Part shown: piece by piece, positions 41,433 through 63,401 of the stretch
Layout of the letters: the number at the start of each line of letters is the position of its first letter
Numbering within the stretch: the first letter of the stretch is position 1
Origin: an uncultured delta proteobacterium
GTDB lineage: Bacteria; Desulfobacterota; Binatia; UBA9968
DNA: 64,000 nt
Direction of reading: 5' to 3'
Assembly: GCA_963728565.1 (NCBI GenBank)
Contig: CAVSLC010000020.1
Coordinates: 1-64,000 of the forward strand
Position numbers and translations under genes: made by a program
Notes under the pieces: generated by a model
Databases searched by the model: none
Told to the model about the DNA's origin: nothing
The model's input: the letters and a program-made list of their open reading frames with translations, nothing else

Positions 41433-41472
41433 AAAAAAAGAGGGCATGGTTTGGAACCATGCCCTCTTTTTC
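41433..41472. terminator. Bidirectional Rho-independent terminator
   Basis: A7-GAGGGCATGGTT-loop-AACCATGCCCTC-T6 between convergent genes. Confidence 0.85.
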
Positions 41473-41488: not shown

Positions 41489-41876
41489 TCAATCGCCGCC
41501 CTTCGCAGGGGTAAACTCGATCCCGCTAACGTAATTTTTTTCGCCTTTTTTGGTGTACTGCACGGTTGCCGATGACCCTAAACCGATATCGGCCATCTTT
41601 GCATCCTTAGCCTTCAGTTCGGTAACTTTTGTCTTCTGATCGAAATCAACTGTGACCAACTTGCCTTCCTTGGTGACCACGATCATATAGTTCTTTTCAG
41701 TATCCAATAAGCCTATATCGCCGGAAACTTTTTCCGCTTTGGCTTTCTCGGCCTTTTCACCTTCCGCTTTCTTTGCGCCTTCTGCCTTCTTCTCGCCTTC
41801 CTGCGCCAAAATTGGCGAGGCCAATGAGAGTGCGCACAGGATACTTAGAGCCCGCACTGCATTATTGTGTCTTCAT
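41489..41876 (-). CDS. Exported small beta-rich protein (KGGD family copy 1, signal peptide type)
   Basis: Signal ...SPILAQE, core GDIGLLDTEKNY...DIGLGSSATV...KGGD; RBS+ATG at 41876 is out of frame with the 41857 ORF, probable indel. Confidence 0.7.
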
Positions 41877-41929
41877 AAAATCGATCCTTTCCAATCATAT
41901 ATTACATAGACCGTAAGAGTTACCGCGGC

Positions 41930-42412
41930 TCAATCCCCACCCTTGGCTGGGGTGAATTCCACGCTTTTGGCGATATTTTTATCGCCCTGCTTGGTATATT
42001 CAACTGTTGCTGAAGAGCCGAGTCCAATATCCGCTATCTTGCTCGGAGTAGGATCGATTTGAGTCGCTTTCGTCTTGGCATCGTAATCCAGCGTGATCAG
42101 CTTACCTTCTTTGGTTACTAGAATCAGGTAATTTTTCTCGGTATCGAGTAATCCGATATCGCCTCGCGCCTTCTCTGCCTTCGCCTTGGCTTCACCCTTA
42201 GCGTCGCCTTTGGCTTCGCCCTTTGACTCGGCCTTTGCCGTCGTAGTTTCAGCTTTCGCCTTGGACTCAGCTTTTGCTTCAGCTTTAGCCGGCGCCGCCG
42301 CAGGTGCCGCCGCGGGCTTGGAAGCCATTTCGTCTTGTGTTGAACAAGAAGAGATAGCAAAAGCCACCGCAACCGCCGCCGCAGCACTACTGATCGAAAA
42401 CAAATCCTTCAT
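41930..42412 (-). CDS. Lipoprotein, KGGD family copy 2
   Basis: Lipobox ISSC, Ala/Lys/Glu/Pro linker, same conserved core ending KGGD. Confidence 0.75.
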   Translation of the reverse strand: MKDLFSISSAAAAVAVAFAISSCSTQDEMASKPAAAPAAAPAKAEAKAESKAKAETTTAKAESKGEAKGDAKGEAKAKAEKARGDIGLLDTEKNYLILVTKEGKLITLDYDAKTKATQIDPTPSKIADIGLGSSATVEYTKQGDKNIAKSVEFTPAKGGD

Positions 42413-42645
42413 TGTTGCCTCCCTAGAACATAGTTAACCGGTAAAAATAGACTCGATAATTATCGTGAGCGTTGATTCATCTCAATACGCTATAGGTATG
42501 GTTTTAGTCGCGCCGATCCGGCTCACTGGCGGTAAATTCAAACTATAGTCTTAGGACGACACGAGCAGGATTACCACGTTGGCATGTTAGTTTATTTCGT
42601 GTATTTTCGCTGGCGTAGGCAAATGTTCCCTAAGGAGCGAGTGCA

Positions 42646-43350
42646 ATGATGCCGATCAAAGTTGTGATTGCTGATGACCACGCGCTTTTCAGAGATGGAC
42701 TCAGACGGATTCTTTCGCTCGAGAAAGACATCCTTGTCGTTGGCGAGGCGGCCAACGGTGACGATGTGATCAAAGTCGTCGAGCGGACAAAGCCGGATAT
42801 CTTGCTCCTGGATCTGAAAATGCCCAAGGGGGATGTTGTTCAAAATTTGCTGGAAGTCGGCGCTAAATACCCGTCAACGCGGGTAATCATTTTGACCGCC
42901 TTCTCGGAGGAGGAAAGTGTTTTGAATGCGGCGAAAGGCGGCGCCAAAGGTTTCGTTCCAAAGGGCGTGCCCTCCACTACCTTGCTTCAAGCAATCAAGG
43001 CGGTGCACCAGGGCGCTTCTTGGACGGATAAGGAGATACCCTCATGGGAAACTTTCGAGGAGATTGCTCAGGGCCAGTCACTTGCCCGTGAAGCGCCGAC
43101 TCAGTTCGATGAGAGTATTAGAAGTCTTACTAAACGAGAAATGGAAATACTCCGGTTGGTGGCCGAAGGTCTTACTAATGAGGAGATCGGCAAGAAAATT
43201 TTTATTAGTGAGAAGACGGTGAAGACTCACCTGACCAATATCTTCGATAAGTTGAAAGTTAATAACCGCTTCAAGGCTGCTCTGATGCTGATGGGCCAGT
43301 CAGGTGAGACTAACACACCCAATTGGACTAGAAGCGGTCGAGGCCGTTAA
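42646..43350 (+). CDS. NarL/LuxR-family response regulator
   Basis: IADDH, LLDLKMP, LTKREMEIL...GLTNEEI...ISEKTVKTHLTNIF. Confidence 0.92.
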   Translation: MMPIKVVIADDHALFRDGLRRILSLEKDILVVGEAANGDDVIKVVERTKPDILLLDLKMPKGDVVQNLLEVGAKYPSTRVIILTAFSEEESVLNAAKGGAKGFVPKGVPSTTLLQAIKAVHQGASWTDKEIPSWETFEEIAQGQSLAREAPTQFDESIRSLTKREMEILRLVAEGLTNEEIGKKIFISEKTVKTHLTNIFDKLKVNNRFKAALMLMGQSGETNTPNWTRSGRGR

Positions 43351-44641
43351 CGATCTCGAACTTCAAAAGCAATGTCTCGCGCCACGCCCTCCACGAGGGA
43401 TACTGATTACTCCCGAGGAGGGATGGCTCTTACAACGAGAGAAACTTTTGGCTTGGCTCCGGGTGGCTTTCGCCATCGTTGCGGTAGTCGTCATACAGCT
43501 TAACCCTTCGCGCACGGCGCGCTTTCCGACGCTTTCAGTTTTTTCCCTGTGGTCCTTCTTAGCCTATAGCCTGTTTATTTTAGAGTTAGTTCGCCGGCAA
43601 AAGGTAGCCTCCAAGAAGATTGGGATCATTACCACTTGCTTTGATTCAATATGGATTTTTTTGATCGTGTTTTCCACCGGCGGTACCCGGACACCATTTT
43701 TTTTCTATTTCTCGTTCCCGATCCTTGCTGCGAGCCTACGCTGGGGAACCAAAGGAAGCGTCTTGGTCGCCTTGGTCGGGGTTACTCTCTATGGTTTGAT
43801 CCGCTTTAGTATGGCTGCGGAAAGCTTTGAGACGCCGATGGGCATCGACACCTTGCTCGTGCGCAGCTTATATCTCATTGTTCTGGCCTATATCTTCGGT
43901 TTTGTCAGCGAATTCGAGAAGAGGCAGAACCAAAGGCTGCTCGCGCTCTCCGACACAGCCGTCAAGGCTGCGGCAATCCAGGAGAGGCGCAGAATCACAT
44001 ACGAACTCCACGATGGCATTCTGCAATCTCTAGCGACGATCATCCTGAGACTTGAAAGCTGTCGCAGCCGGCTTATCGACTCTCAAAAGGACTTGCGCCA
44101 GGAAATCGAAGACATTGAAAATTTCACCAGAAATTCAATGACGGAAATCAGGAATTTTCTGGCCGGCAAAGAGACCCAGCCGTTAACGCCGGGAACGCTG
44201 ATAGAAAAGCTCCGAGACGAACTTAAGTTCCTGCAACAGAGCTTGGGATTGGAAGTAATCCTCGAGAGTAAACCGGATGACCCGAGCCTGCCGGATTACA
44301 TCGAGCGCGAAGTCTATTATGCCCTACGAGAAGCATTGACCAACGTCACCAAACACTCGCATGCCTCTCGGGTTGAGATTCAAATTACCCAGGCCCCGGA
44401 CCTGCTCGAGGCATCGCTCAAGGACAACGGTGTGGGATTTGATCAAGACAATCAGAAAAACCGCAGCCGACTGGGTTTGTCGGGCATGGGAGACAGAATA
44501 AAAAAGATCGGGGGACGACTAAACATAAAGTCATCCCCCGGTTTAGGGACTATGGTTATGTTAGCCATCCCCTTGGTTGAAACAAGAAAATCTATCCCAA
44601 TCGAAACATTGTCAGACAATCAAACGGGCGCGAACTCGTGA
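43304..44641 (+). CDS. Membrane sensor histidine kinase, HisKA_3 type
   Basis: About six TM helices, ERRRITYELHD, REALTNVTKH, DNGVGF, GLSGM; start uncertain. Confidence 0.88.
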   Translation: MRLTHPIGLEAVEAVNDLELQKQCLAPRPPRGILITPEEGWLLQREKLLAWLRVAFAIVAVVVIQLNPSRTARFPTLSVFSLWSFLAYSLFILELVRRQKVASKKIGIITTCFDSIWIFLIVFSTGGTRTPFFFYFSFPILAASLRWGTKGSVLVALVGVTLYGLIRFSMAAESFETPMGIDTLLVRSLYLIVLAYIFGFVSEFEKRQNQRLLALSDTAVKAAAIQERRRITYELHDGILQSLATIILRLESCRSRLIDSQKDLRQEIEDIENFTRNSMTEIRNFLAGKETQPLTPGTLIEKLRDELKFLQQSLGLEVILESKPDDPSLPDYIEREVYYALREALTNVTKHSHASRVEIQITQAPDLLEASLKDNGVGFDQDNQKNRSRLGLSGMGDRIKKIGGRLNIKSSPGLGTMVMLAIPLVETRKSIPIETLSDNQTGANS

Positions 44642-44700
44642 CTAACTTGGACTTGGGCAAGAGCTTATTCAAGCGAGTAACCAGCCATTTTTCTCGGTAC

Positions 44701-45066
44701 TTAATCGCCACCCTTCTTAACTACATATTCAATGCCGGTGAGATAGTTCTTGTCACCTTTTTTGGTGTATGCCACCGAAGCCGCCGAACCTAGGCCGATA
44801 TCCGCCATCTTCGCGGACTTCGGCACCAGCTGTGTAACCTTAGTCTTTTCGTTGAAGTCCACCGTCACCAACTTGCCGTCTTTGGTAACGACAATCATAT
44901 AGTTCTTCTCGGTATCCAATAGCCCGATATCGCCGGCAACCTTTTCCGCCTTGGCTTTTTCTGTCTTGCCTTTTTCTGCGTTCTTTTCCTGGGCCGCTAT
45001 GGGAGGCGCGACAAATAGCGCCATGAAAATTGCCCAACCAAACATGCTCTTCGATTCAAGTCTCAT
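44701..45066 (-). CDS. Exported small protein, KGGD family copy 3
   Basis: GAGGAGG RBS, signal ...PPIAAQE, conserved core ending KGGD. Confidence 0.75.
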   Translation of the reverse strand: MRLESKSMFGWAIFMALFVAPPIAAQEKNAEKGKTEKAKAEKVAGDIGLLDTEKNYMIVVTKDGKLVTVDFNEKTKVTQLVPKSAKMADIGLGSAASVAYTKKGDKNYLTGIEYVVKKGGD

Positions 45067-45100
45067 AAAATCCCTCCTCATTAGCTCGTTCACCTGATGA

Positions 45101-45535
45101 TTAATCGCCACCTTTGGCGGCTTTGAACTCGACTCCGCTGGCGATATTCTTGTCTTTCTGTTTTGTATACGTGACCGTCGCTGACGAGCCCAGACCTACA
45201 TCCGCGATCTTAGCCGGGGTTGGAGTCACTTGCGTCACTTTGGTTTTTTGATCGAAATCCAACGTGACCAGCTTGCCTTCTTTGGTCACGAGAATCAGAT
45301 AGTTCTTCTCGGTATCGATGAGGCCGATATCGCCTTTAGCTTTTTCGGCCTTAACTTTAGCCTCAGCCTTTGCCTCGGTCTTGGCTCCGGTTTCGGCCTT
45401 AGTTTCGGCTTTAGTTGCAGGTGTCGCGGGCGCTGCCGTGGGCTTACCTACCCGCTCTTCTTGAGTTGAACACGACGCCAAAGCTAGCAGCATAGCCCCG
45501 GCAATGACTCCAGTTCCCGGAAACGCACTTTTCAT
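45101..45535 (-). CDS. Lipoprotein, KGGD family copy 4
   Basis: Lipobox LASC, low-complexity linker, conserved core ending KGGD. Confidence 0.75.
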   Translation of the reverse strand: MKSAFPGTGVIAGAMLLALASCSTQEERVGKPTAAPATPATKAETKAETGAKTEAKAEAKVKAEKAKGDIGLIDTEKNYLILVTKEGKLVTLDFDQKTKVTQVTPTPAKIADVGLGSSATVTYTKQKDKNIASGVEFKAAKGGD

Positions 45536-45862
45536 CTTTCTATCCTCCCCGTTTGTCAGACTAAAGTCGAAGTTAGTAAACCATTAGTCGTATACTTTAC
45601 GCCGTGATGCCTTGTCAAGCGATTAAGATGAACTCAAAGGAATTTTCGCGACGTATGAACCGCGCCAGGCGCCGATCTGTGCTACGGCCGGAAATGGCGC
45701 CGGCTTACGTTTAAACCAGACGAATATAACGATGTCGATGGGCGATGAATGTTAAGTCGACAGTTTGACGACGGCACCGAAGTTTCCGCTTCTGGCGATC
45801 TGCTTTAAAGTTCGCTCATGAAACAATTAAAATGTGTGGCCGCCGGCATCTTTTTGAGACAC

Positions 45863-45899
45863 AAAAAAGGGGGGAGTCCATTCTGACTCCCCCCTTTTT
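45863..45899 (-). terminator. Rho-independent terminator after barrel gene 1
   Basis: AAAAAAGGGGGGAGTC-CATTCT-GACTCCCCCCTTTTT. Confidence 0.8.
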
Positions 45900-45921: not shown

Positions 45922-47449
45922 CTAGAACGTGTAGCGCCAGTTCAGAAACAGTGTATGCCAATCCCCGCCTTTGCCATTTCGGCATCCCGTAGCAGGGGTA
46001 ACATTCGGTGTATCGCAAACTCCGAGATTATGCGCTGCCTGGTTGGCCCCGTTGCGCAAGTTCGACGCATCGTACCAGAGCCAGTTGACACCAATGCTCA
46101 TGCGCGGCGCCAGAAAGTACCACAGATCCACCTCGCGCAGGAGTATCCGGTTGCGGTGGAATTGGTTCAGCATAGCATTTCCGCCCGCAGCCACGACGCT
46201 GGCGCAAGTGATCCCGGTGTTGCCGTTACAACCCACTTCCATATCAACCCGCTCGAAGTGGGTGCCGACGAGGATCGATCCCGGAGTGTTGGCAGAGCCT
46301 GTCAGAAAACCCTTGGGGCTCCACAGAAAAAGATCATGACCGATCAACCAACTGTCACCCTTCTTGCGGCCTGGCGTGCCGCCGCGATCTTCACTTCTCT
46401 GGCGATGAGCCATGGCGCGCAACGTATAGGGACCGATGTTCCAGATAAATCCTGGCGTAAGGGCGATATGAAGGCCATCACCAATGGAGTCGGCGCCGCT
46501 GTCAAACAAGGCCTGGCGACCGCCATCGCCATGATCCTGAATGCGGTAACGGGAGCAACCGTTATCTTGGGCGCGATTATCGGCATTACAGAACCATGCG
46601 CCCATTTCGAAAGCCAGTCCGCGGATCCACATGTTCTTGGTTTGCGAGAACGGCTGGAAATTGATGTAAGTATTGAAATCCTTGCGATCGGTAAAGCTGC
46701 TTAATCCGTCGTCACCCTCGGCAATATTTCCCATACCGATATTGAAACGGCTGATCCGGCCGGGAATGCCGATACCCGAAAGTGATCTGTCGTCCCAGAA
46801 TAACGAGATACCATTGCCGGTGCGGCCGGTATTGAAACCGTTGTTGCGCGTGTGCAGATCGTACTCAGCCTGCGAGCCCGTTGCGCTGGAACCCTGGCGC
46901 GCGGTGCTCATGCTGTTCTGCACTTCCATGCCCAGCTGCACCGTCGGCAAAAATGGATTCAGGTTTTCGAGATGGATGTTAAGAGCGCCGCGCTGCAGAA
47001 TCGAGCCGACACCCGTCGCCGTCGCGTTCTTCCCATTGCCGGTGCCGAAACCGTCTAGGTCGATAGTTGCCTCGAGCTCCCACAAGCAGTTGTTGATGCA
47101 GTAAAAGAACCCCGGCCGAAAACGGCGGCCCATGATCTCGCCGTTGGTGCGGCCGACTTGGTCCCGCCCTTCTTCGAAAAGCATCCGGTAAGTAAGTTTC
47201 CAATGTCGCGCGGAAAGACCATGACTTGTCCGCCGCTTCGATGTTGAGACCGTTACCCGGACGGTAGCTAAAACTCGGCATCGCCGCTGCCGCCTCAGTT
47301 GCCTCCTTCTTCAGCTCGATCTGCTGCTCTTTTAACTGCATCAGCTCTTGCTCAAGCGCCTGGATCTTTTGATCCACGTTTTGCGCAAGGGCCGGGGCAG
47401 CCAAAAGGAACGCAGATAGCATTCCCAATCCCAAAAACCTCTTCTTCAT
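45922..47449 (-). CDS. Outer-membrane beta-barrel/porin (OprO/P-like architecture), frameshifted near 47190
   Basis: Signal peptide, N-terminal coiled coil, amphipathic beta strands, C-terminal LNWRYTF; paralog of 54416..55894. Confidence 0.65.
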
Positions 47450-54415: not shown

Positions 54416-55894
54416 TCAGAATGTGTATCTCCAGTTCAGAAACATATCCCACCACTCCCCACCTCGTCCGGCTACACCATTGTTCCGGATATCGAGGTTC
54501 TGCTGTACCGTCGTCGTCAGATTTTTAGCGTCGTACCACAACCAGCTTGCGCCAATGCTCATTCGCGGCGCGATGAAGTACCAGAGATCCCACTCACGCA
54601 GTATGACACGATTGCGATGGTATTGGCCGCTATTGATACTAGCCGGACACCCATCACAGGACATATTGACTCTTTCAAAGTGTGTTCCGACGAGGACCGA
54701 GCCGGTCGTGGTTGCAGAACCAGTCAAGAAGCCCTTCGGGCTCCAAAGAAAGAGATCGTGACCAATCAGCCAGCTATTGGCTCGTTTTTTACCCGGTGTA
54801 GAGGTTCGACCGATCGCGCCAGCTCCGTCCTCGCTGCGCTGAAAGCTGCCCATGGCGCGCAGCCTGTAAGGGCCAATTTGCCAGCCGAACCCGGGGGTTA
54901 AAGCGATATGGAGACCCTCGCCGATGCTGTTTGCGCCGGTATCGAAAAGCGTCTGTCGGCCCGCCCTGGAGTTGTCTCGAATACGGTAACGGCTGCAGCC
55001 GTTTTCAAAGGCACGGTCGTCCACGTTACAGAACCAAGCGGCACCTTCGAAATGAAGCCCTCGTAGCCAAGTGTTCTTCAGCTGGGAGAACGGGTCGAGT
55101 CCAAGAAAGACATTGAAATCTTTGCGGTCAGTGCGGCTGCTCAAGCCATCGTCGCCCTCGGCGATGTTGGCCATCGATAATTGAAAACGGCTAATTCGTC
55201 CCGGTATCCCAATGCCGGATAAAGATCGGTCATCCCAATTTAGAACGAGTCCATTACCGGCTCGGCCTGTGTTGTTGCCGTTATTGGCAGTGTGAAGATC
55301 GTATTCCGCCTGCGAGCCCACTGCCCCGGAACCCTGGCGTACAGTGCTCGTCGATGCACCGGATATGTCCATGCCGATTGTGACTGTAGGCAGGAAAGGA
55401 TTTAAATTTTCCGCATGCCAGTGCAGAGCCGCGCGCTGCAAGATACTGCCGAAATCATCTCCTGTAGCGTTTTTACCGGTGCCGCCGCCGAACCCGTCGA
55501 GATCGATGGCCGCCTCGAGTTCCCACAAGCAGTTGTTGATGCAGTAGAAGAACGACGGTCTGAAGCGCCGGCCCTCAATCTCTCCGTTGGTACGACCTAT
55601 CGAATCTTTCCCGCTCAAAAAGTTCATGCGGAAATGCGATTCCAAACTTGCGCGAAAGGACCAAGCTTTATCTGCTGCTTCGACATTCAACCCGTTGCCC
55701 GGACGATAGCTAAAGCTCGGCATGGCGGCTGCCGCCTCGGTGGCTTCTTTCTTTAATTCGAGTTGCTGTGCTTCCAATTGCGAGAGTCTAGCCCGAAGTT
55801 CGCTAATCTCGTCATCCACGTTTTGTGCTAATACTGCTCCGCCAACGAACAAGAGGCTGAAAAACACCGTTAGCTTTAAAGCAATTTTTTCCAT
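54416..55894 (-). CDS. Outer-membrane beta-barrel/porin paralog 2
   Basis: Signal peptide AVLA-Q, coiled coil, long blocks identical to 45922..47449, C-terminal LNWRYTF. Confidence 0.7.
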   Translation of the reverse strand: MEKIALKLTVFFSLLFVGGAVLAQNVDDEISELRARLSQLEAQQLELKKEATEAAAAMPSFSYRPGNGLNVEAADKAWSFRASLESHFRMNFLSGKDSIGRTNGEIEGRRFRPSFFYCINNCLWELEAAIDLDGFGGGTGKNATGDDFGSILQRAALHWHAENLNPFLPTVTIGMDISGASTSTVRQGSGAVGSQAEYDLHTANNGNNTGRAGNGLVLNWDDRSLSGIGIPGRISRFQLSMANIAEGDDGLSSRTDRKDFNVFLGLDPFSQLKNTWLRGLHFEGAAWFCNVDDRAFENGCSRYRIRDNSRAGRQTLFDTGANSIGEGLHIALTPGFGWQIGPYRLRAMGSFQRSEDGAGAIGRTSTPGKKRANSWLIGHDLFLWSPKGFLTGSATTTGSVLVGTHFERVNMSCDGCPASINSGQYHRNRVILREWDLWYFIAPRMSIGASWLWYDAKNLTTTVQQNLDIRNNGVAGRGGEWWDMFLNWRYTF

Positions 55895-55955
55895 CTTCCC
55901 TCCTCTTACATCTATAGTCTTATCCTAGACCAGCTAAAAGTCGTATTAACATCGC

Positions 55956-56008
55956 CTTTTAGCCCCAGTATTGGTATATGTCAAGACTAAAGTTTTAAGA
56001 CTTTAGGC
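55956..56008 (-). promoter_or_regulatory. Promoter with upstream operator boxes, barrel gene 2
   Basis: Minus strand TTGACA-N17-TAAAAG; plus-strand GACTAAAGTT (55985) and GACTTTAGGC (55999) abut the -35. Confidence 0.6.
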
Positions 56009-56244
56009 CTGTTCCGGTGATTCGTTTACGGATTGCTGGAGCCTGGGGCTTTCCAGGGCTGCTTCTGGCTACTCGGTTTGTTGCGCGATTGGATGCTGTA
56101 AGAGAAAGCCTGAGACTGAAAGGCTTATTGATTACGCGACTCTAGGCGAGCTCAACAACAACTACTGAAGAGGAATTTGTGAATCAGTTAACCAACGGGC
56201 TATTGCGGTGAATCAGCATTGACTTACTAAGACTTTGGTATTAA

Positions 56245-57627
56245 ATGCCTCAGCATCAGCCTTCGAAGCTATTTATGTCTCGCATTCTGTTTATCGACAA
56301 GGAAGATCGCTCGCGAGCTCTACTGCAGTGTCGGCTCAAGGCTGACGTAAAAATTAACTTCGCCCCTTCTCTGGAAGCAGCATGGGAGAAGCTAAGCACT
56401 CGCAAGTTCGATCTGATCTTGTGGAACACAGTTAATGATCCGGCAGCAGAGATAAATCTCAGCGAGACTCTAAAGCTATTTTCAACCAAGGTTTGCGGCA
56501 GCAGGATTGTTGTCTTCAGTGACTCTGAGGCATTGCAGAGGCGGTTTCGCTGCGGCAATGTTCAAGTCGACAATCTGCCGACAAACGGAGAAGATTTACT
56601 AGCGCTAGTGCGGAGCAATCTTCCGCTCAAGGTGCCATCCGAGAGAAACAACTCCACCGCTGATAAGTTTGCCCTGCCAATAGAGTTTGAAGGGATTATA
56701 GCCGTGAGTCTGCCGATGGGAGCGGTGCTCCGGCGCGCGATCGAGGCGGCCAATGTCGATATGCCGGTTCTGATCACCGGCGAAACCGGCACAGGCAAAG
56801 ATCTTATCGCCGCAGCGATTCACAAACGAAGTCGACGCAAGGACAACCCTTACATCATTGTCAACACCGGTGCGATGTCGCCGCAGCTCATAGCCAGCGA
56901 GATCTTCGGTCACGAAAAAGGCGCGTTTACCGGGGCGGAGGACGCGCACCAGGGGATTTTCGAACAAGCTCAGGGAGGCACTGTTTTTCTCGATGAAATC
57001 GCCACTATGGACGAAAAGACTCAGGTGAGTTTGCTCCGAGTATTGGAAGAGAAAACATTTTATCGAGTCGGAGGAATCAAGAAATTCCGCGCCGACGTTC
57101 GCATCATCGCCGCCACGAACGAAGATCTGGAAAAGAAGGTCACTGAGAAACGCTTTCGCGAGGATCTCTTTTATCGGCTAAACGTTCTGCATATAAGCGT
57201 CCCGCCGTTGCGCGAGCGGCCCGGCGCCGTCACCGTGCTGACGGATCATTTTCTTTCGCACTTTGCCCCGATATTCGGAAAAGAGGTTGAGAGGGTCGCG
57301 CCGGAAACCTACCGGATGCTGCGACGCTACCGCTGGCCGGGGAACGTCCGCGAGCTTAAGAACGTTATTCAAGCAGCGCTCTTGATGCTCGATGGCAATG
57401 AACTAACACCGGAATGCATCCCGGAACGGATCCGGAATGCCGCTTTAGGAGGCGAAGAGCGTGGCGAACCGACTTGCTCATTTCGAGTCGGTACCTCGCT
57501 GCATACCGTAGAGAAGGAACTCATTCGGATGACACTCATCTTTGCCGGCGGAAACAAGAAGCTAGCGGCAAGCATTCTCGGGATCAGCCGGCGTGCTCTT
57601 TACAACAAGCTCAAGACTCATAATTAA
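56245..57627 (+). CDS. Sigma54-dependent activator with degenerate receiver domain
   Basis: [27 protein letters not shown], Fis HTH; receiver FDLILWN lacks the phospho-Asp; start may be 56275. Confidence 0.85.
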   Translation: MPQHQPSKLFMSRILFIDKEDRSRALLQCRLKADVKINFAPSLEAAWEKLSTRKFDLILWNTVNDPAAEINLSETLKLFSTKVCGSRIVVFSDSEALQRRFRCGNVQVDNLPTNGEDLLALVRSNLPLKVPSERNNSTADKFALPIEFEGIIAVSLPMGAVLRRAIEAANVDMPVLITGETGTGKDLIAAAIHKRSRRKDNPYIIVNTGAMSPQLIASEIFGHEKGAFTGAEDAHQGIFEQAQGGTVFLDEIATMDEKTQVSLLRVLEEKTFYRVGGIKKFRADVRIIAATNEDLEKKVTEKRFREDLFYRLNVLHISVPPLRERPGAVTVLTDHFLSHFAPIFGKEVERVAPETYRMLRRYRWPGNVRELKNVIQAALLMLDGNELTPECIPERIRNAALGGEERGEPTCSFRVGTSLHTVEKELIRMTLIFAGGNKKLAASILGISRRALYNKLKTHN

Positions 57628-62459: not shown

Positions 62460-63401
62460 TTAATTCTCTTGTGTGCCGAGAAATCTCTCCGCATCGATGG
62501 ATGCCATACAACCGGTGCCGGCGGCGGTAACGGCTTGGCGGTAAACATGATCCTGCACATCGCCGCACGCAAACACGCCAGGGATATTGGTCTGAGTGCC
62601 GTCATGAGTCAAGATATATCCGAGCGGATCTAGTTCCAGTTGCCCGGCAAACAGCTTTGAGTTGGGCTCGTGGCCGATTGCGATAAATACCCCGTCAACT
62701 TTGCGGTCCTCCGACTTACCGGTCTTGAGGTTCTTAAGCCTAACGCCCTTTACGCCACCGTTCTTAGGGTCGCCATAAATCTCATCGACAGCGCTATTCC
62801 AGGTAAATGATATTTTCGAATTCTTTTTAGCGCGGTCCTGCATGATTTTTGACGCGCGCAGAGCGTCGCGTCGATGTACGACGTTAACGCTTGACGCAAA
62901 CTTTGTCAGAAACGTTGCCTCTTCCATCGCTGTATCACCGCCGCCAACGACTACCAGGTCCTTGTCTTTAAAAAAGAACCCATCGCAGGTGGCGCACGCC
63001 GAGACGCCATGGCCCATCAGTTTGCTTTCAGATTCTAGTCCTAGCAATTTGGCGGTCGCGCCGGTGGCCACGATCAAAGCCTCGCATGTAAATGCGTTGT
63101 GACCGGCGAAGAGTTTGAACGGCCGTTGCTTGAGATCGACCGAGGTAACCTCGCCGAACATCACCTCCGTTCCGAAACGCACGGCTTGTTTCTTGAACGA
63201 TTCCATTAGCTCCGGGCCCATAATCCCATCCGGGAATCCGGGATAGTTTTCGACATCGGTCGTGATAGTGAGTTGGCCTCCAGGTTGAACCCCCTCAATA
63301 ACGAGCGGCTCGAGATTAGCGCGGGCGGCGTAGATCGCGGCAGTGAGACCGGCGGCGCCGGAGCCGAGAATGATCAGACGGTAGTGACTTTTTTTCTCCA
63401 T
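62460..63401 (-). CDS. trxB: Thioredoxin reductase
   Basis: [49 protein letters not shown]. Confidence 0.96.

Follow-up and report, generated by a model that had tools for sequence, protein, structure and literature searches.

What do two pairs of small exported proteins do on either side of a two-component system? The question is raised by a 64-kb stretch of contig CAVSLC010000020.1 (referred to in the following as the window) from an uncultured soil bacterium of the class Binatia, in which open reading frame (ORF) mapping and inspection of the sequence place four related genes on the minus strand. They form two operons, each consisting of a lipoprotein gene followed by a gene for a soluble form, and the operons flank a divergently oriented NarL-type response regulator gene and a HisKA_3 histidine kinase gene. 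The genes are designated A to D: B (lipoprotein) and A (soluble) constitute the regulator-side pair, with gene B facing the regulator gene across 233 nt; D (lipoprotein) and C (soluble) constitute the kinase-side pair, with gene C converging on the kinase gene. The reading favoured here, to which we assign about an even chance, is that of a Lia-like envelope regulon, in which paired small β-barrel proteins and OprO/P-like porins are the outputs of the kinase and regulator.

The four genes are a family. Their 85-residue cores are 71-79% identical, 48 columns being invariant, and each core has KGGD as its end, while DNA identity of the four copies is 60-73% over 287 nt. The combination of low DNA identity with high protein identity implies old duplications and proteins under constraint rather than chance resemblance: the four-gene family is an old duplication maintained under protein-level constraint. 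A sequence-only reading of the window had proposed four paralogs arranged as pairs bracketing a NarL-type system, and all four ORFs are indeed found. Lipoboxes, signal peptides, ribosome-binding sites and terminators were identified by direct reading of the sequence; the N-termini of B and D fit the lipobox pattern [LVI][ASTVI][GAS]C (AISSC in B, LALASC in D) and these proteins are predicted to be lipidated. A genome scan returned 57 related loci from species-representative genomes, which together with the window supply 151 near-full cores (83 soluble forms and 68 lipoproteins). Signature residues that distinguish the two subtypes in the window, and which had been said to be kept across pairs, hold beyond it (NYMIV in 67 of the 83 soluble forms, NY[LM]IL in 54 of the 68 lipoproteins).

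Conservation of these cores is of the kind associated with housekeeping genes. Relative to the window's copies, median identity of the cores amounts to 71-78%, as against 79% (the neighbouring DksA-like protein), 80% (FtsK), 76% (the regulator) and 57% (the kinase). This points to many surfaces being under constraint, as would hold for envelope proteins that are abundant or form oligomers. Against Pfam and NCBIfam, the four proteins yield sub-threshold noise only. In a word-indexed search, 5,743 proteins (clusters at 90% identity) out of 5,798 candidates match at E <= 0.001, so that a family lacking a Pfam or NCBIfam name is nonetheless abundant. The best 120 of the 5,743 are all at least 62% identical, are assigned by NCBI records to Candidatus Binatia, and are named 'hypothetical protein' or, by the Joint Genome Institute (JGI), 'major membrane immunogen'. 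(The JGI name is backed by no search in this analysis, and was set aside.) An exhaustive profile search of 1.84 billion representatives finds 106 proteins at E <= 0.001, 53 at <= 1e-10 and 13 at <= 1e-30, a small count that marks a compact family.

By profile comparison, the core is a divergent DUF5666 domain. Alignment by hhalign of the 151 cores with nine DUF5666 (PF18914) segments cut at Pfam coordinates gives a probability of 97.5% and an E value of 7.9e-12 over 75 of 85 columns; the family profile and the Pfam DUF5666 model mark the same residues in P0184, P0190, P0203, P0221 and P0225; and DUF5666 repeat proteins are among the hits of the family profile in the 1.84 billion representatives, with E values of 1e-9 to 1e-4. 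(Weaker matches are multi-repeat DUF5666 proteins, some with sub-threshold matches to CusF_Ec.) A protein-language-model atlas points the same way, with leads to DUF5666 (0.92) and to a cluster (0.91) of which DUF5666 makes up 23% and CusF_Ec 12%. The Pfam models applied directly give no row at E <= 1 (PF18914, gathering score 27 bits) and no row at all (PF11604, CusF_Ec) for any of the four proteins. The domain differs from other DUF5666 in occurring singly, behind a K/E or A/K/P/E linker, with a K-G-(G)-[DE] end and in a fixed lipoprotein plus soluble pair.

Among solved structures, a broader family profile reaches five chains in the PDB, all of them marginally (E 0.0056-0.01). Four of these are chains of CusF, the E. 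coli chaperone for Cu(I) and Ag(I), and the match to them (E 0.007-0.01) extends over the entire domain; the best (E 0.0056) is 9FS9, a domain of Viridibacillus arvi that forms the four-fold axis of the surface-layer (S-layer) lattice, according to the accessible text of PMC11410804. A profile of the window's four cores alone retrieves nothing useful from the PDB (methionine aminopeptidase at E 0.8), and P0188, a five-repeat DUF5666 protein, has no solved relative in the PDB sequence search. AlphaFold models the core as β1-β2-β3-turn-β4-β5, with a short turn between β3 and β4, at a predicted local distance difference test score (pLDDT) of 91.7 and a predicted template modelling score of 0.58; the full-length model has a pLDDT of 75. 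Of the CusF/BOF-like fold proposed in the sequence-only reading, the small β-barrel stands at the level of sequence profiles (confidently for DUF5666, marginally for CusF); the BOF part is not supported, no match to BOF (YgiW) having appeared in any search.

CusF (PF11604; PDB 1ZEQ, 2VB2) is also a small periplasmic β-barrel, with the strand order of the AlphaFold model. Its metal site is made up of His36, Met47 and Met49, capped by Trp44 (accessible text of PMC9302797). In the HMMER alignment of core to CusF, His36 corresponds to Glu27, Trp44 to Phe35 (Phe or Tyr across the family), and Met47-Thr48-Met49 to Lys38-Thr39-Lys40; Lys38 is invariant in both subtypes and Lys40 in the soluble forms, with rare exceptions to Lys40 among the lipoproteins. 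The 151 cores contain four His, no Cys and no Trp in 12,725 residues, and the window's two lipoprotein cores contain no Met. Judged by these residues, CusF-type metal binding is unlikely, and a metal site of the CusF type is not present. If the marginal CusF alignment is right, the same pocket would have been kept with opposite chemistry. A conserved pocket lined by Lys and Glu, rather than by Met and His, would suit an anionic or polar ligand better than a soft metal. The cores as a whole are nearly charge-neutral (14-15 K+R versus 11-13 D+E).

The C-terminal KGGD, thought from the window to be invariant, is so for its four copies only. Over the 151 cores, the ends are KGGD in 54, KGE in 78, KGGE in four, KGGN in two and something else (mostly basic, such as YKTKK) in 13. 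KGGD is thus one lineage's variant of K-G-(G)-[DE], which is found in 136 of 151 cores; in more distant relatives the K-G-(G)-acidic motif is entirely gone. The last five or six residues are modelled with low confidence (mean pLDDT of the final block, 46 in the full-length and 66 in the core model). A Pup-like ligation tag was considered for the KGE/KGGD end; the Pup tag ends in ...GGE and pupylation is cytoplasmic, and the possibility is ruled out by the export signals that all members bear. One distant branch (P0154, P0167 and P0185) carries, in place of KG(G)[DE], a conserved RPGGCPEG(R/Q)PCP motif with two Cys and a basic tail.

Why should each operon specify an anchored and a free form? 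The order lipoprotein gene, then soluble gene, recurs in the related loci, and the distinction is an old one. In a maximum-likelihood tree of the 151 cores (built on 85 columns, most of its forks being unresolved), 72 rows, soluble forms only, constitute one clade with a Shimodaira-Hasegawa-like approximate likelihood ratio test (SH-aLRT) support of 99. The label lipoprotein/soluble changes eight times on this tree, as compared with 42 changes of the label kinase-side/regulator-side, and some of the eight are lipoproteins with N-termini cut by frame errors (L002_4313, for example). The small number of the former changes relative to the latter implies that the lipoprotein/soluble split predates duplication of the pair, and the core phylogeny indicates that pairs have been repeatedly duplicated or homogenised. 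(Locus L040 has two soluble genes with identical upstream peptides.) A lipobox is present in 68 of the 151 family members, most often followed by STQ after the Cys (36 of 68). The lipoprotein linker, from the lipidated Cys to β1, has 31-66 residues (median 42.5) and consists largely of Ala (35%), Lys (18%), Pro (14%) and Glu (12%). One natural lipoprotein, P0121, has two such domains in tandem.

When a lipoprotein core and a soluble core are folded together in silico, the pair scores 0.58, the best of three controls scoring 0.00, with contact agreement between runs of at least 99% and partner pLDDT of at least 84. The mark that this score passes is reached by 116 of 157 solved complexes and by two of 215 mismatched pairs; scores up to 0.60 account for only 18 of the 157 solved complexes, but for both of the mismatched pairs that pass, and the result gives weak support to pairing of the modelled cores. 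The idea that the two forms work as anchored and free partners gains from the old soluble clade and the two-domain lipoprotein, and slightly from co-folding.

The two-component system is of the NarL/LiaR type: receiver (REC) and GerE domains in the regulator and HisKA_3 and HATPase_c domains in the kinase exceed the Pfam gathering scores. Assignment to a named NCBIfam subfamily fails for both proteins; the best rows for the regulator (MadR and NarL) and those for the kinase (UhpB, MctS, LiaS and MacS) are all below cut-off (MadR 166 vs 300, LiaS 87.5 vs 450, MacS 86.7 vs 300). At these sub-cut-off scores, the kinase resembles the membrane-sensing LiaS/MacS/UhpB group. As read from the translation, the N-terminal ~200 amino acids of the kinase contain six hydrophobic segments joined by loops of no more than 13 residues, implying a kinase without a periplasmic sensor domain. 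The longest kinase ORF, opened by the GTG at 43304, has its first 47 nt (43304-43350) in common with the 3' end of the regulator gene, and the true start may lie further downstream.

Across the 57 loci the common gene order is HisF, (porin), pair, kinase, regulator, pair, DksA-like, MiaB-like, LolA, FtsK. The kinase/regulator pair is present in 46 and has family genes to either side in 28. Of the 11 loci without it, ten end within ~265 nt of a family gene, on the side where the kinase and regulator would be expected; only in L043 is the pair kept and the kinase/regulator truly missing. L042 has a single pair with the kinase/regulator, and L048, L052, L053 and L056 are rearranged to the order lipoprotein, kinase, regulator, soluble form. 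The proposed link of the family to the two-component system is upheld by this co-occurrence, and is extended by a shared candidate operator (described below). The proposed link to the neighbouring barrel fares less well, a porin-like gene adjoining in only 15 of the 29 loci in which adjacency can be judged.

The candidate operator is a 16-bp palindrome, TAnGACTnnAGTCnTA, which marks the upstream regions of both operons and of a second porin gene. Allowing up to two mismatches, it occurs seven times in the 64-kb window, 0.65 occurrences being expected, and none of 100 dinucleotide-preserving shuffles reached seven. (The match at 63028 lies inside a coding region and is probably due to chance.) In 573,462 nt of the related loci there are 111 matches, compared with a shuffle mean of 15.75 and a maximum of 21. 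Of these, 98 precede a family lipoprotein gene, 47 of them on the regulator side and 51 on the kinase side; 13 of the 47 fall where the regulator's stop-to-stop frame is extended at its 5' end. Positions T1, C6, G11 and A16 of the palindrome fit exactly the T-N4-C-N4-G-N4-A consensus reported for LiaR of Enterococcus faecalis, and the sites of NarL-family regulators vary widely among regulators (accessible text of PMC4482077). That wide variation means that the fit to LiaR shows shared geometry and not identity.

The two operons differ in where the palindrome is placed. Thirty-four regulator-side regions share one architecture, in which a single palindrome, for example TAGGACTCTAGTCGTA, lies ~45-55 nt upstream of a conserved 30-nt block, AAAAtccTACctAAaGCGTATTGAGATGa ... 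tCAcGaTAA. In the window, the block at 42456..42505 is the one conserved in the 34 aligned regions, and a promoter scan flags 42485 to 42456 on the minus strand. The palindrome at 42538..42553 is ~33 nt upstream of a plus-strand promoter-like sequence, TTGGCA-17-TATTTT, roughly 65-70 nt before the likely start of the regulator transcript and ~95 nt before that of gene B. The kinase-side architecture, common to 26 regions, consists of CGCTTGACAAg, 13 nt on, TAAAGTATA(C/G)GACT, then TA(A/C/G)GACT heptamers in inverted or direct orientation and, ~10-15 nt past the heptamers, a palindrome such as TAAGACTTCAGTCTTA, followed by the ribosome-binding site.

A porin-like gene lies upstream of gene D. 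An intact paralog of it, P0227, is located 9 kb away, divergent from a sigma-54 activator gene at 56245-57627; in its promoter, heptamer sites follow the -10 element and further ones precede the -35 element, and TTGACA-N17-TAAAAG spacing holds for both porin promoters. Pfam gives no match for either porin, and its Porin_O_P model (PF07396) matches neither the window's copies nor four intact homologs. In the atlas, P0227 has Porin_O_P clusters as neighbours (0.97; 206 features in common; Porin_O_P in 26 of 30 hits). On the strength of its upstream sites, the second porin gene is placed in the same putative regulon. The sigma-54 activator gene has a further palindrome match, at 56228-56243, immediately before its start.

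How might these components work together? In the envelope-regulon reading, each operon would provide one lipid-anchored and one free periplasmic protein built on a divergent DUF5666, CusF-like five-stranded β-barrel, and the two would probably form a hetero-oligomer in the envelope. The kinase would sense the state of the membrane or envelope, as its lack of a periplasmic domain implies. The NarL/LiaR-type regulator would bind the candidate TAnGACTnnAGTCnTA sites, and its direct outputs would be both pairs, the OprO/P-like porin genes and probably its own operon. At D-C and at the second porin gene, the promoter has a perfect TTGACA and the sites overlap its -10 region or come after it, which is the geometry of repression; at B-A the one site is upstream, between divergent promoters, a geometry that would suit activation or autoregulation. 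This difference implies that the two pairs may be oppositely regulated, and a signal would then change which pair and which porin are produced.

Several observations weigh against this reading. All the loci come from one lineage and their whole neighbourhood is syntenic, so that co-occurrence with the kinase/regulator is not independent from locus to locus and is weak evidence when taken alone. The control for palindrome enrichment in the related loci consisted of 20 shuffles that keep base composition only, and the palindrome could belong to another regulator. At the D promoter, TAAAGT is only 13 nt from TTGACA, making the -10 element at good spacing ambiguous; the promoter scan did not flag this promoter; and the site beside its -10 has three mismatches in its right half. 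The CusF alignment on which the pocket argument depends is marginal (E about 0.007). The co-folded chains are 71% identical paralogs, for which a hetero-pair and a homo-dimer are indistinguishable. In the structural comparison that had been proposed as a check, Foldseek confirms no fold: neither the full-length nor the core model matches any PDB entry at E <= 0.001, the top rows, which include CusF and cold-shock proteins (CspA), have best E values of 0.7-0.9, template modelling (TM) scores of at most 0.40 and a root-mean-square deviation of ~16 Å, and the CusF rows lie at TM 0.34-0.38 despite a confident model. It is thus by sequence profiles, and not by superposition, that the core is related to DUF5666 and CusF. 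One possible reason for poor superposition of a confident model is that it represents an open or strand-swapped protomer.

The rival explanations differ chiefly in what they make of the neighbourhood and of the pocket. It is very unlikely, in our estimation, that gene order has merely been inherited, with envelope proteins functionally unrelated to the kinase/regulator and a palindrome that is some other regulator's site: synteny of the region in every locus of a single lineage, and retention of a pair without the kinase/regulator in L043, are what such a history would leave behind, but it does not explain why the palindrome lies in the regulator's own divergent promoter region in 34 aligned loci, has the spacing published for a NarL-family regulator and recurs at the unlinked porin paralog, or why family genes still stand to either side of the kinase/regulator in the rearranged loci. 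A functional tie of another kind would exist if the lipoprotein were an accessory sensor, reporting an outer-membrane or lipoprotein-trafficking defect to the kinase, with the soluble paralog as decoy or feedback inhibitor. NlpE for CpxA and RcsF for the Rcs relay are models for such a sensor and CpxP is one for the inhibitor; kinases with short loops usually depend on partner proteins, and this kinase has short extracytoplasmic loops only. The lipoprotein linker is long enough that it could span the periplasm, family genes flank the kinase/regulator in 28 loci, the candidate operator stands at both pairs, as is often the case for autoregulated accessory proteins, and a porin gene is the neighbour in about half of the loci that can be judged (RcsF works with porins). 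Yet the same short loops offer little surface to a periplasmic domain, a sensor would not need two complete pairs under different promoters, and conservation at the level of DksA and FtsK fits a structural or abundant protein at least equally; this explanation we regard as unlikely.

Two further proposals give the proteins a cargo. That they are CusF-like metal chaperones, induced by the two-component system, the free form carrying metal to the anchored partner or to the barrel, draws on CusF chains being the only named solved relatives by sequence, on weak CusF_Ec Pfam matches in distant multi-domain relatives and on the fact that cusF, too, adjoins a two-component system and an outer-membrane channel gene. 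The amino acid composition of the cores and the Glu, Lys and Lys aligned with CusF's ligands speak against it, as does the failure to recognise a resistance-nodulation-division (RND) pump, membrane-fusion protein or P-type ATPase among the identified neighbours of the pairs; moreover, CusR is of the OmpR type and the regulator here is NarL-type. A variant in which Asp and Glu bind a hard cation (Ca2+ or Mg2+) is compatible with these facts, but the proposal as a whole is highly improbable. Alternatively, the cargo might be an anionic solute (phosphate, polyphosphate or some other oxyanion), admitted by the OprO/P-like porins, shuttled by the free form and received by the anchored one. Such carriage would accord with the language-model lead from the porin paralogs to Porin_O_P, with the candidate operator common to porins and pairs, and with the invariant Lys residues at the position of the CusF ligands. 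It is made decidedly unlikely by the lack of a match to the Pfam Porin_O_P model, by the near-neutral charge of the cores, by the inconstant adjacency of the porin gene, and because no ATP-binding cassette (ABC) or other inner-membrane importer is recognised beside the pairs.

A reading that goes further than the envelope regulon, and that we consider unlikely, has the kinase flip the cell between two envelope sets, each comprising a Lys-lined mini-barrel pair and its own OprO/P-like porin. The pairs would be tether-and-shuttle relays that link the outer membrane with the remainder of the envelope and move an anionic molecule, either a solute or one belonging to the envelope. This would entail a CusF-type fold with inverted ligand chemistry (Lys-Thr-Lys for Met-Thr-Met), in a paired architecture that would be one not described for DUF5666 or CusF. 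A precedent for the switch is EnvZ/OmpR, which sets OmpF versus OmpC: here, too, one system would set the ratio of paralogs through differently placed sites. The difference is that the regulator belongs to another family, that the targets would be periplasmic domain pairs as well as porins, and that reciprocity is deduced from site geometry alone.

For the envelope regulon itself, the nearest comparison is with LiaFSR/VraSR, the envelope stress systems of Firmicutes. Shared features are a HisKA_3 kinase with membrane segments only, a NarL-family regulator, the fit to the T-N4-C-N4-G-N4-A operator and neighbours that are exported or membrane proteins. In the Lia system the outputs include LiaIH and LiaX; here they would be β-barrel domain pairs and porins. 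Other differences are the order regulator, then kinase, outer-membrane porin-like barrels in the host, and LiaS and MadR scores far below the NCBIfam cut-offs; at this locus a LiaF-like gene is found neither between the pairs nor next to them, the regulator and kinase being the only genes of their operon. YgiW-QseBC, CpxP-CpxAR and ZraP-ZraSR offer another likeness, in that small periplasmic proteins (YgiW with an oligonucleotide/oligosaccharide-binding (OB) fold) are encoded divergently from their own two-component systems. A small exported protein gene likewise faces the regulator gene over a shared control region in the Binatia locus, but there are two pairs, each with a lipid-anchored member, and the searches made show no sequence relation to BOF, CpxP or ZraP. 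CusF differs also in context, efflux pump genes not being recognised near the pairs. The 9FS9 domain, by its marginal sequence match, is a lead to the notion that such barrels can oligomerise; its host is Gram-positive, it is part of a large surface-layer protein, and it was not returned by Foldseek.

The family is as conserved as DksA or FtsK in Binatia, a widespread lineage of uncultured soil bacteria. For DUF5666, no functional study was found, and the accessible parts of papers naming the domain list such a protein in tables; of the papers listed by a literature search on two-component systems, lipoproteins or porins in Binatia or Binatota, none names either taxon. The present analysis provides the domain assignment (a divergent DUF5666) and a first genomic context for that uncharacterised domain. 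It also provides a candidate regulator and a precise candidate operator, the latter open to in vitro tests for which the organism need not be grown. Were the reciprocal switch real, the locus would be a compact example of Lia-type envelope remodelling in a bacterium with an outer membrane.

Coordinates of the features are collected in Table 1. The promoter/terminator scan overlooked both obvious hairpin terminators and the D promoter, and repeat finding and direct reading were used in its place; the stem in the 3' end of the kinase gene is taken from the scan.

Table 1. Genes and candidate control elements of the paired-protein locus and of the second porin gene (positions in the window; a dot denotes no strand)
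Feature	Position	Strand	Details
Two-way terminator, gene A / converging DksA-like gene	41435..41471	.	perfect 17-nt inverted repeat, 3-nt loop, A/T runs on both sides
Gene A, soluble paralog, second gene of regulator-side pair	41489..41857	-	122 aa; signal peptide end ...SPILA/QE; K/E-rich linker, 85-aa DUF5666-like core, KGGD end
Gene B, lipoprotein paralog, first gene of regulator-side pair	41930..42412	-	160 aa; lipobox AISSC/STQ; long A/K/P/E linker, core, KGGD end; 72-nt gap from B to A
Regulator-side pair promoter block	42456..42505	-	AAAAccATACCTAtAGCGTATTGAGATGA ... TCACGATAAT; TTGAGA(-35)-like and A/T-rich -10-like hexamers
Candidate regulator site, regulator/gene B intergenic	42538..42553	.	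palindrome TCAAACTATAGTCTTA, 2 mismatches to TAnGACTnnAGTCnTA
Response regulator, NarL family	42646..43350	+	receiver PF00072 (1e-22) and GerE/LuxR helix-turn-helix PF00196 (6.7e-23)
Histidine kinase	43304..44641	+	HisKA_3 PF07730 (5.6e-12) and HATPase_c PF02518 (2.4e-11)
Terminator-like stem in 3' end of kinase gene	44509..44540	-	12 pairs, 8 of them G-C, then T run
Gene C, soluble paralog, second gene of kinase-side pair	44701..45066	-	121 aa; ...PPIAA/QE, KKGGD end; longest ORF 44701-45111, likely start the ATG at 45066, preceded by GAGGAGGG
Gene D, lipoprotein paralog, first gene of kinase-side pair	45101..45535	-	144 aa; LALASC/STQ, AKGGD end
Kinase-side pair promoter/operator	45556..45618	-	TTGACA 45613-45618; 13 nt on, conserved block TAAAGTATACGACT
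Kinase-side sites	heptamer 45577-45592; palindrome 45556-45571	-	palindrome TTCGACTTTAGTCTGA; at or after -10 region
Terminator after porin-like gene, upstream of D	45864..45899	.	perfect 15-nt inverted repeat with T/A runs
Porin-like outer-membrane barrel gene	45922..47449	-	signal peptide, coiled coil, barrel end ...NWRYTF
Second porin paralog P0227, intact	54416..55894	-	58% identical to L051 porin; signal peptide, coiled coil, barrel end NWRYTF
Second porin upstream region	55895..56011	-	TTGACA-N17-TAAAAG; palindromes 55907-55922, 55982-55997, 55996-56011
Seven matches to TAnGACTnnAGTCnTA in the window	42538, 45556, three in 55907-56011, 56228, 63028		42538 in regulator/B intergenic region, 45556 in D promoter

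The terminator-like stem within the kinase gene may be the end of the D-C transcript, which would then overlap the converging kinase transcript by ~130 nt. Relative to the MKTQ(N/S)AVRAL... start of its close homologs, gene A is shifted by one base at its 5' end (41857-41880). In close homologs the start ATG is preceded by the ribosome-binding site GGAAAGGA; in the window the homologous ATG frame stops after four codons, owing to one extra base, and the long frame is opened only by a GTG with no obvious ribosome-binding site. This frame break reflects either genuine damage to the gene or a mistake in sequencing. The first porin gene is similarly split, within 47120-47230, into two overlapping frames by one extra base near 47185, as compared with the intact homolog of L051 and with L002, whose near-identical porin has a different one-base shift ~20 nt upstream. 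The porin frame breaks could reflect independent decay of this porin copy or assembly errors.

Seven loci (L007, L009, L012, L022, L025, L034 and L036) have Binatia gene order, and proteins 70-90% identical to those of Binatia contigs, on contigs labelled Chloroflexota, Udaeobacter, Verrucomicrobia/Verrucomicrobiia, Eisenbacteria, Nitrospirota or Thermoleophilaceae; mis-binning or mislabelling is the probable cause, rather than gene transfer. Two loci (L026, 1945-4201; L040, 1193-4459) have two extra genes between HisF/porin and the kinase-side pair, one for a lipoprotein of 469-488 aa with two GAPHG halves and the other for a Pal/OmpA-like lipoprotein; the window has neither. P0124, in which an amidohydrolase fragment is joined to a core, looks chimeric or frameshifted and is not counted as a fusion. 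The distant relatives P0131, P0137 and P0145 have one or two core domains that come after a signal peptide, a conserved helical module (…IE..L..G…RV..L….GV.F.VT.E…RL…GA…) and a long E/R/K coiled coil.

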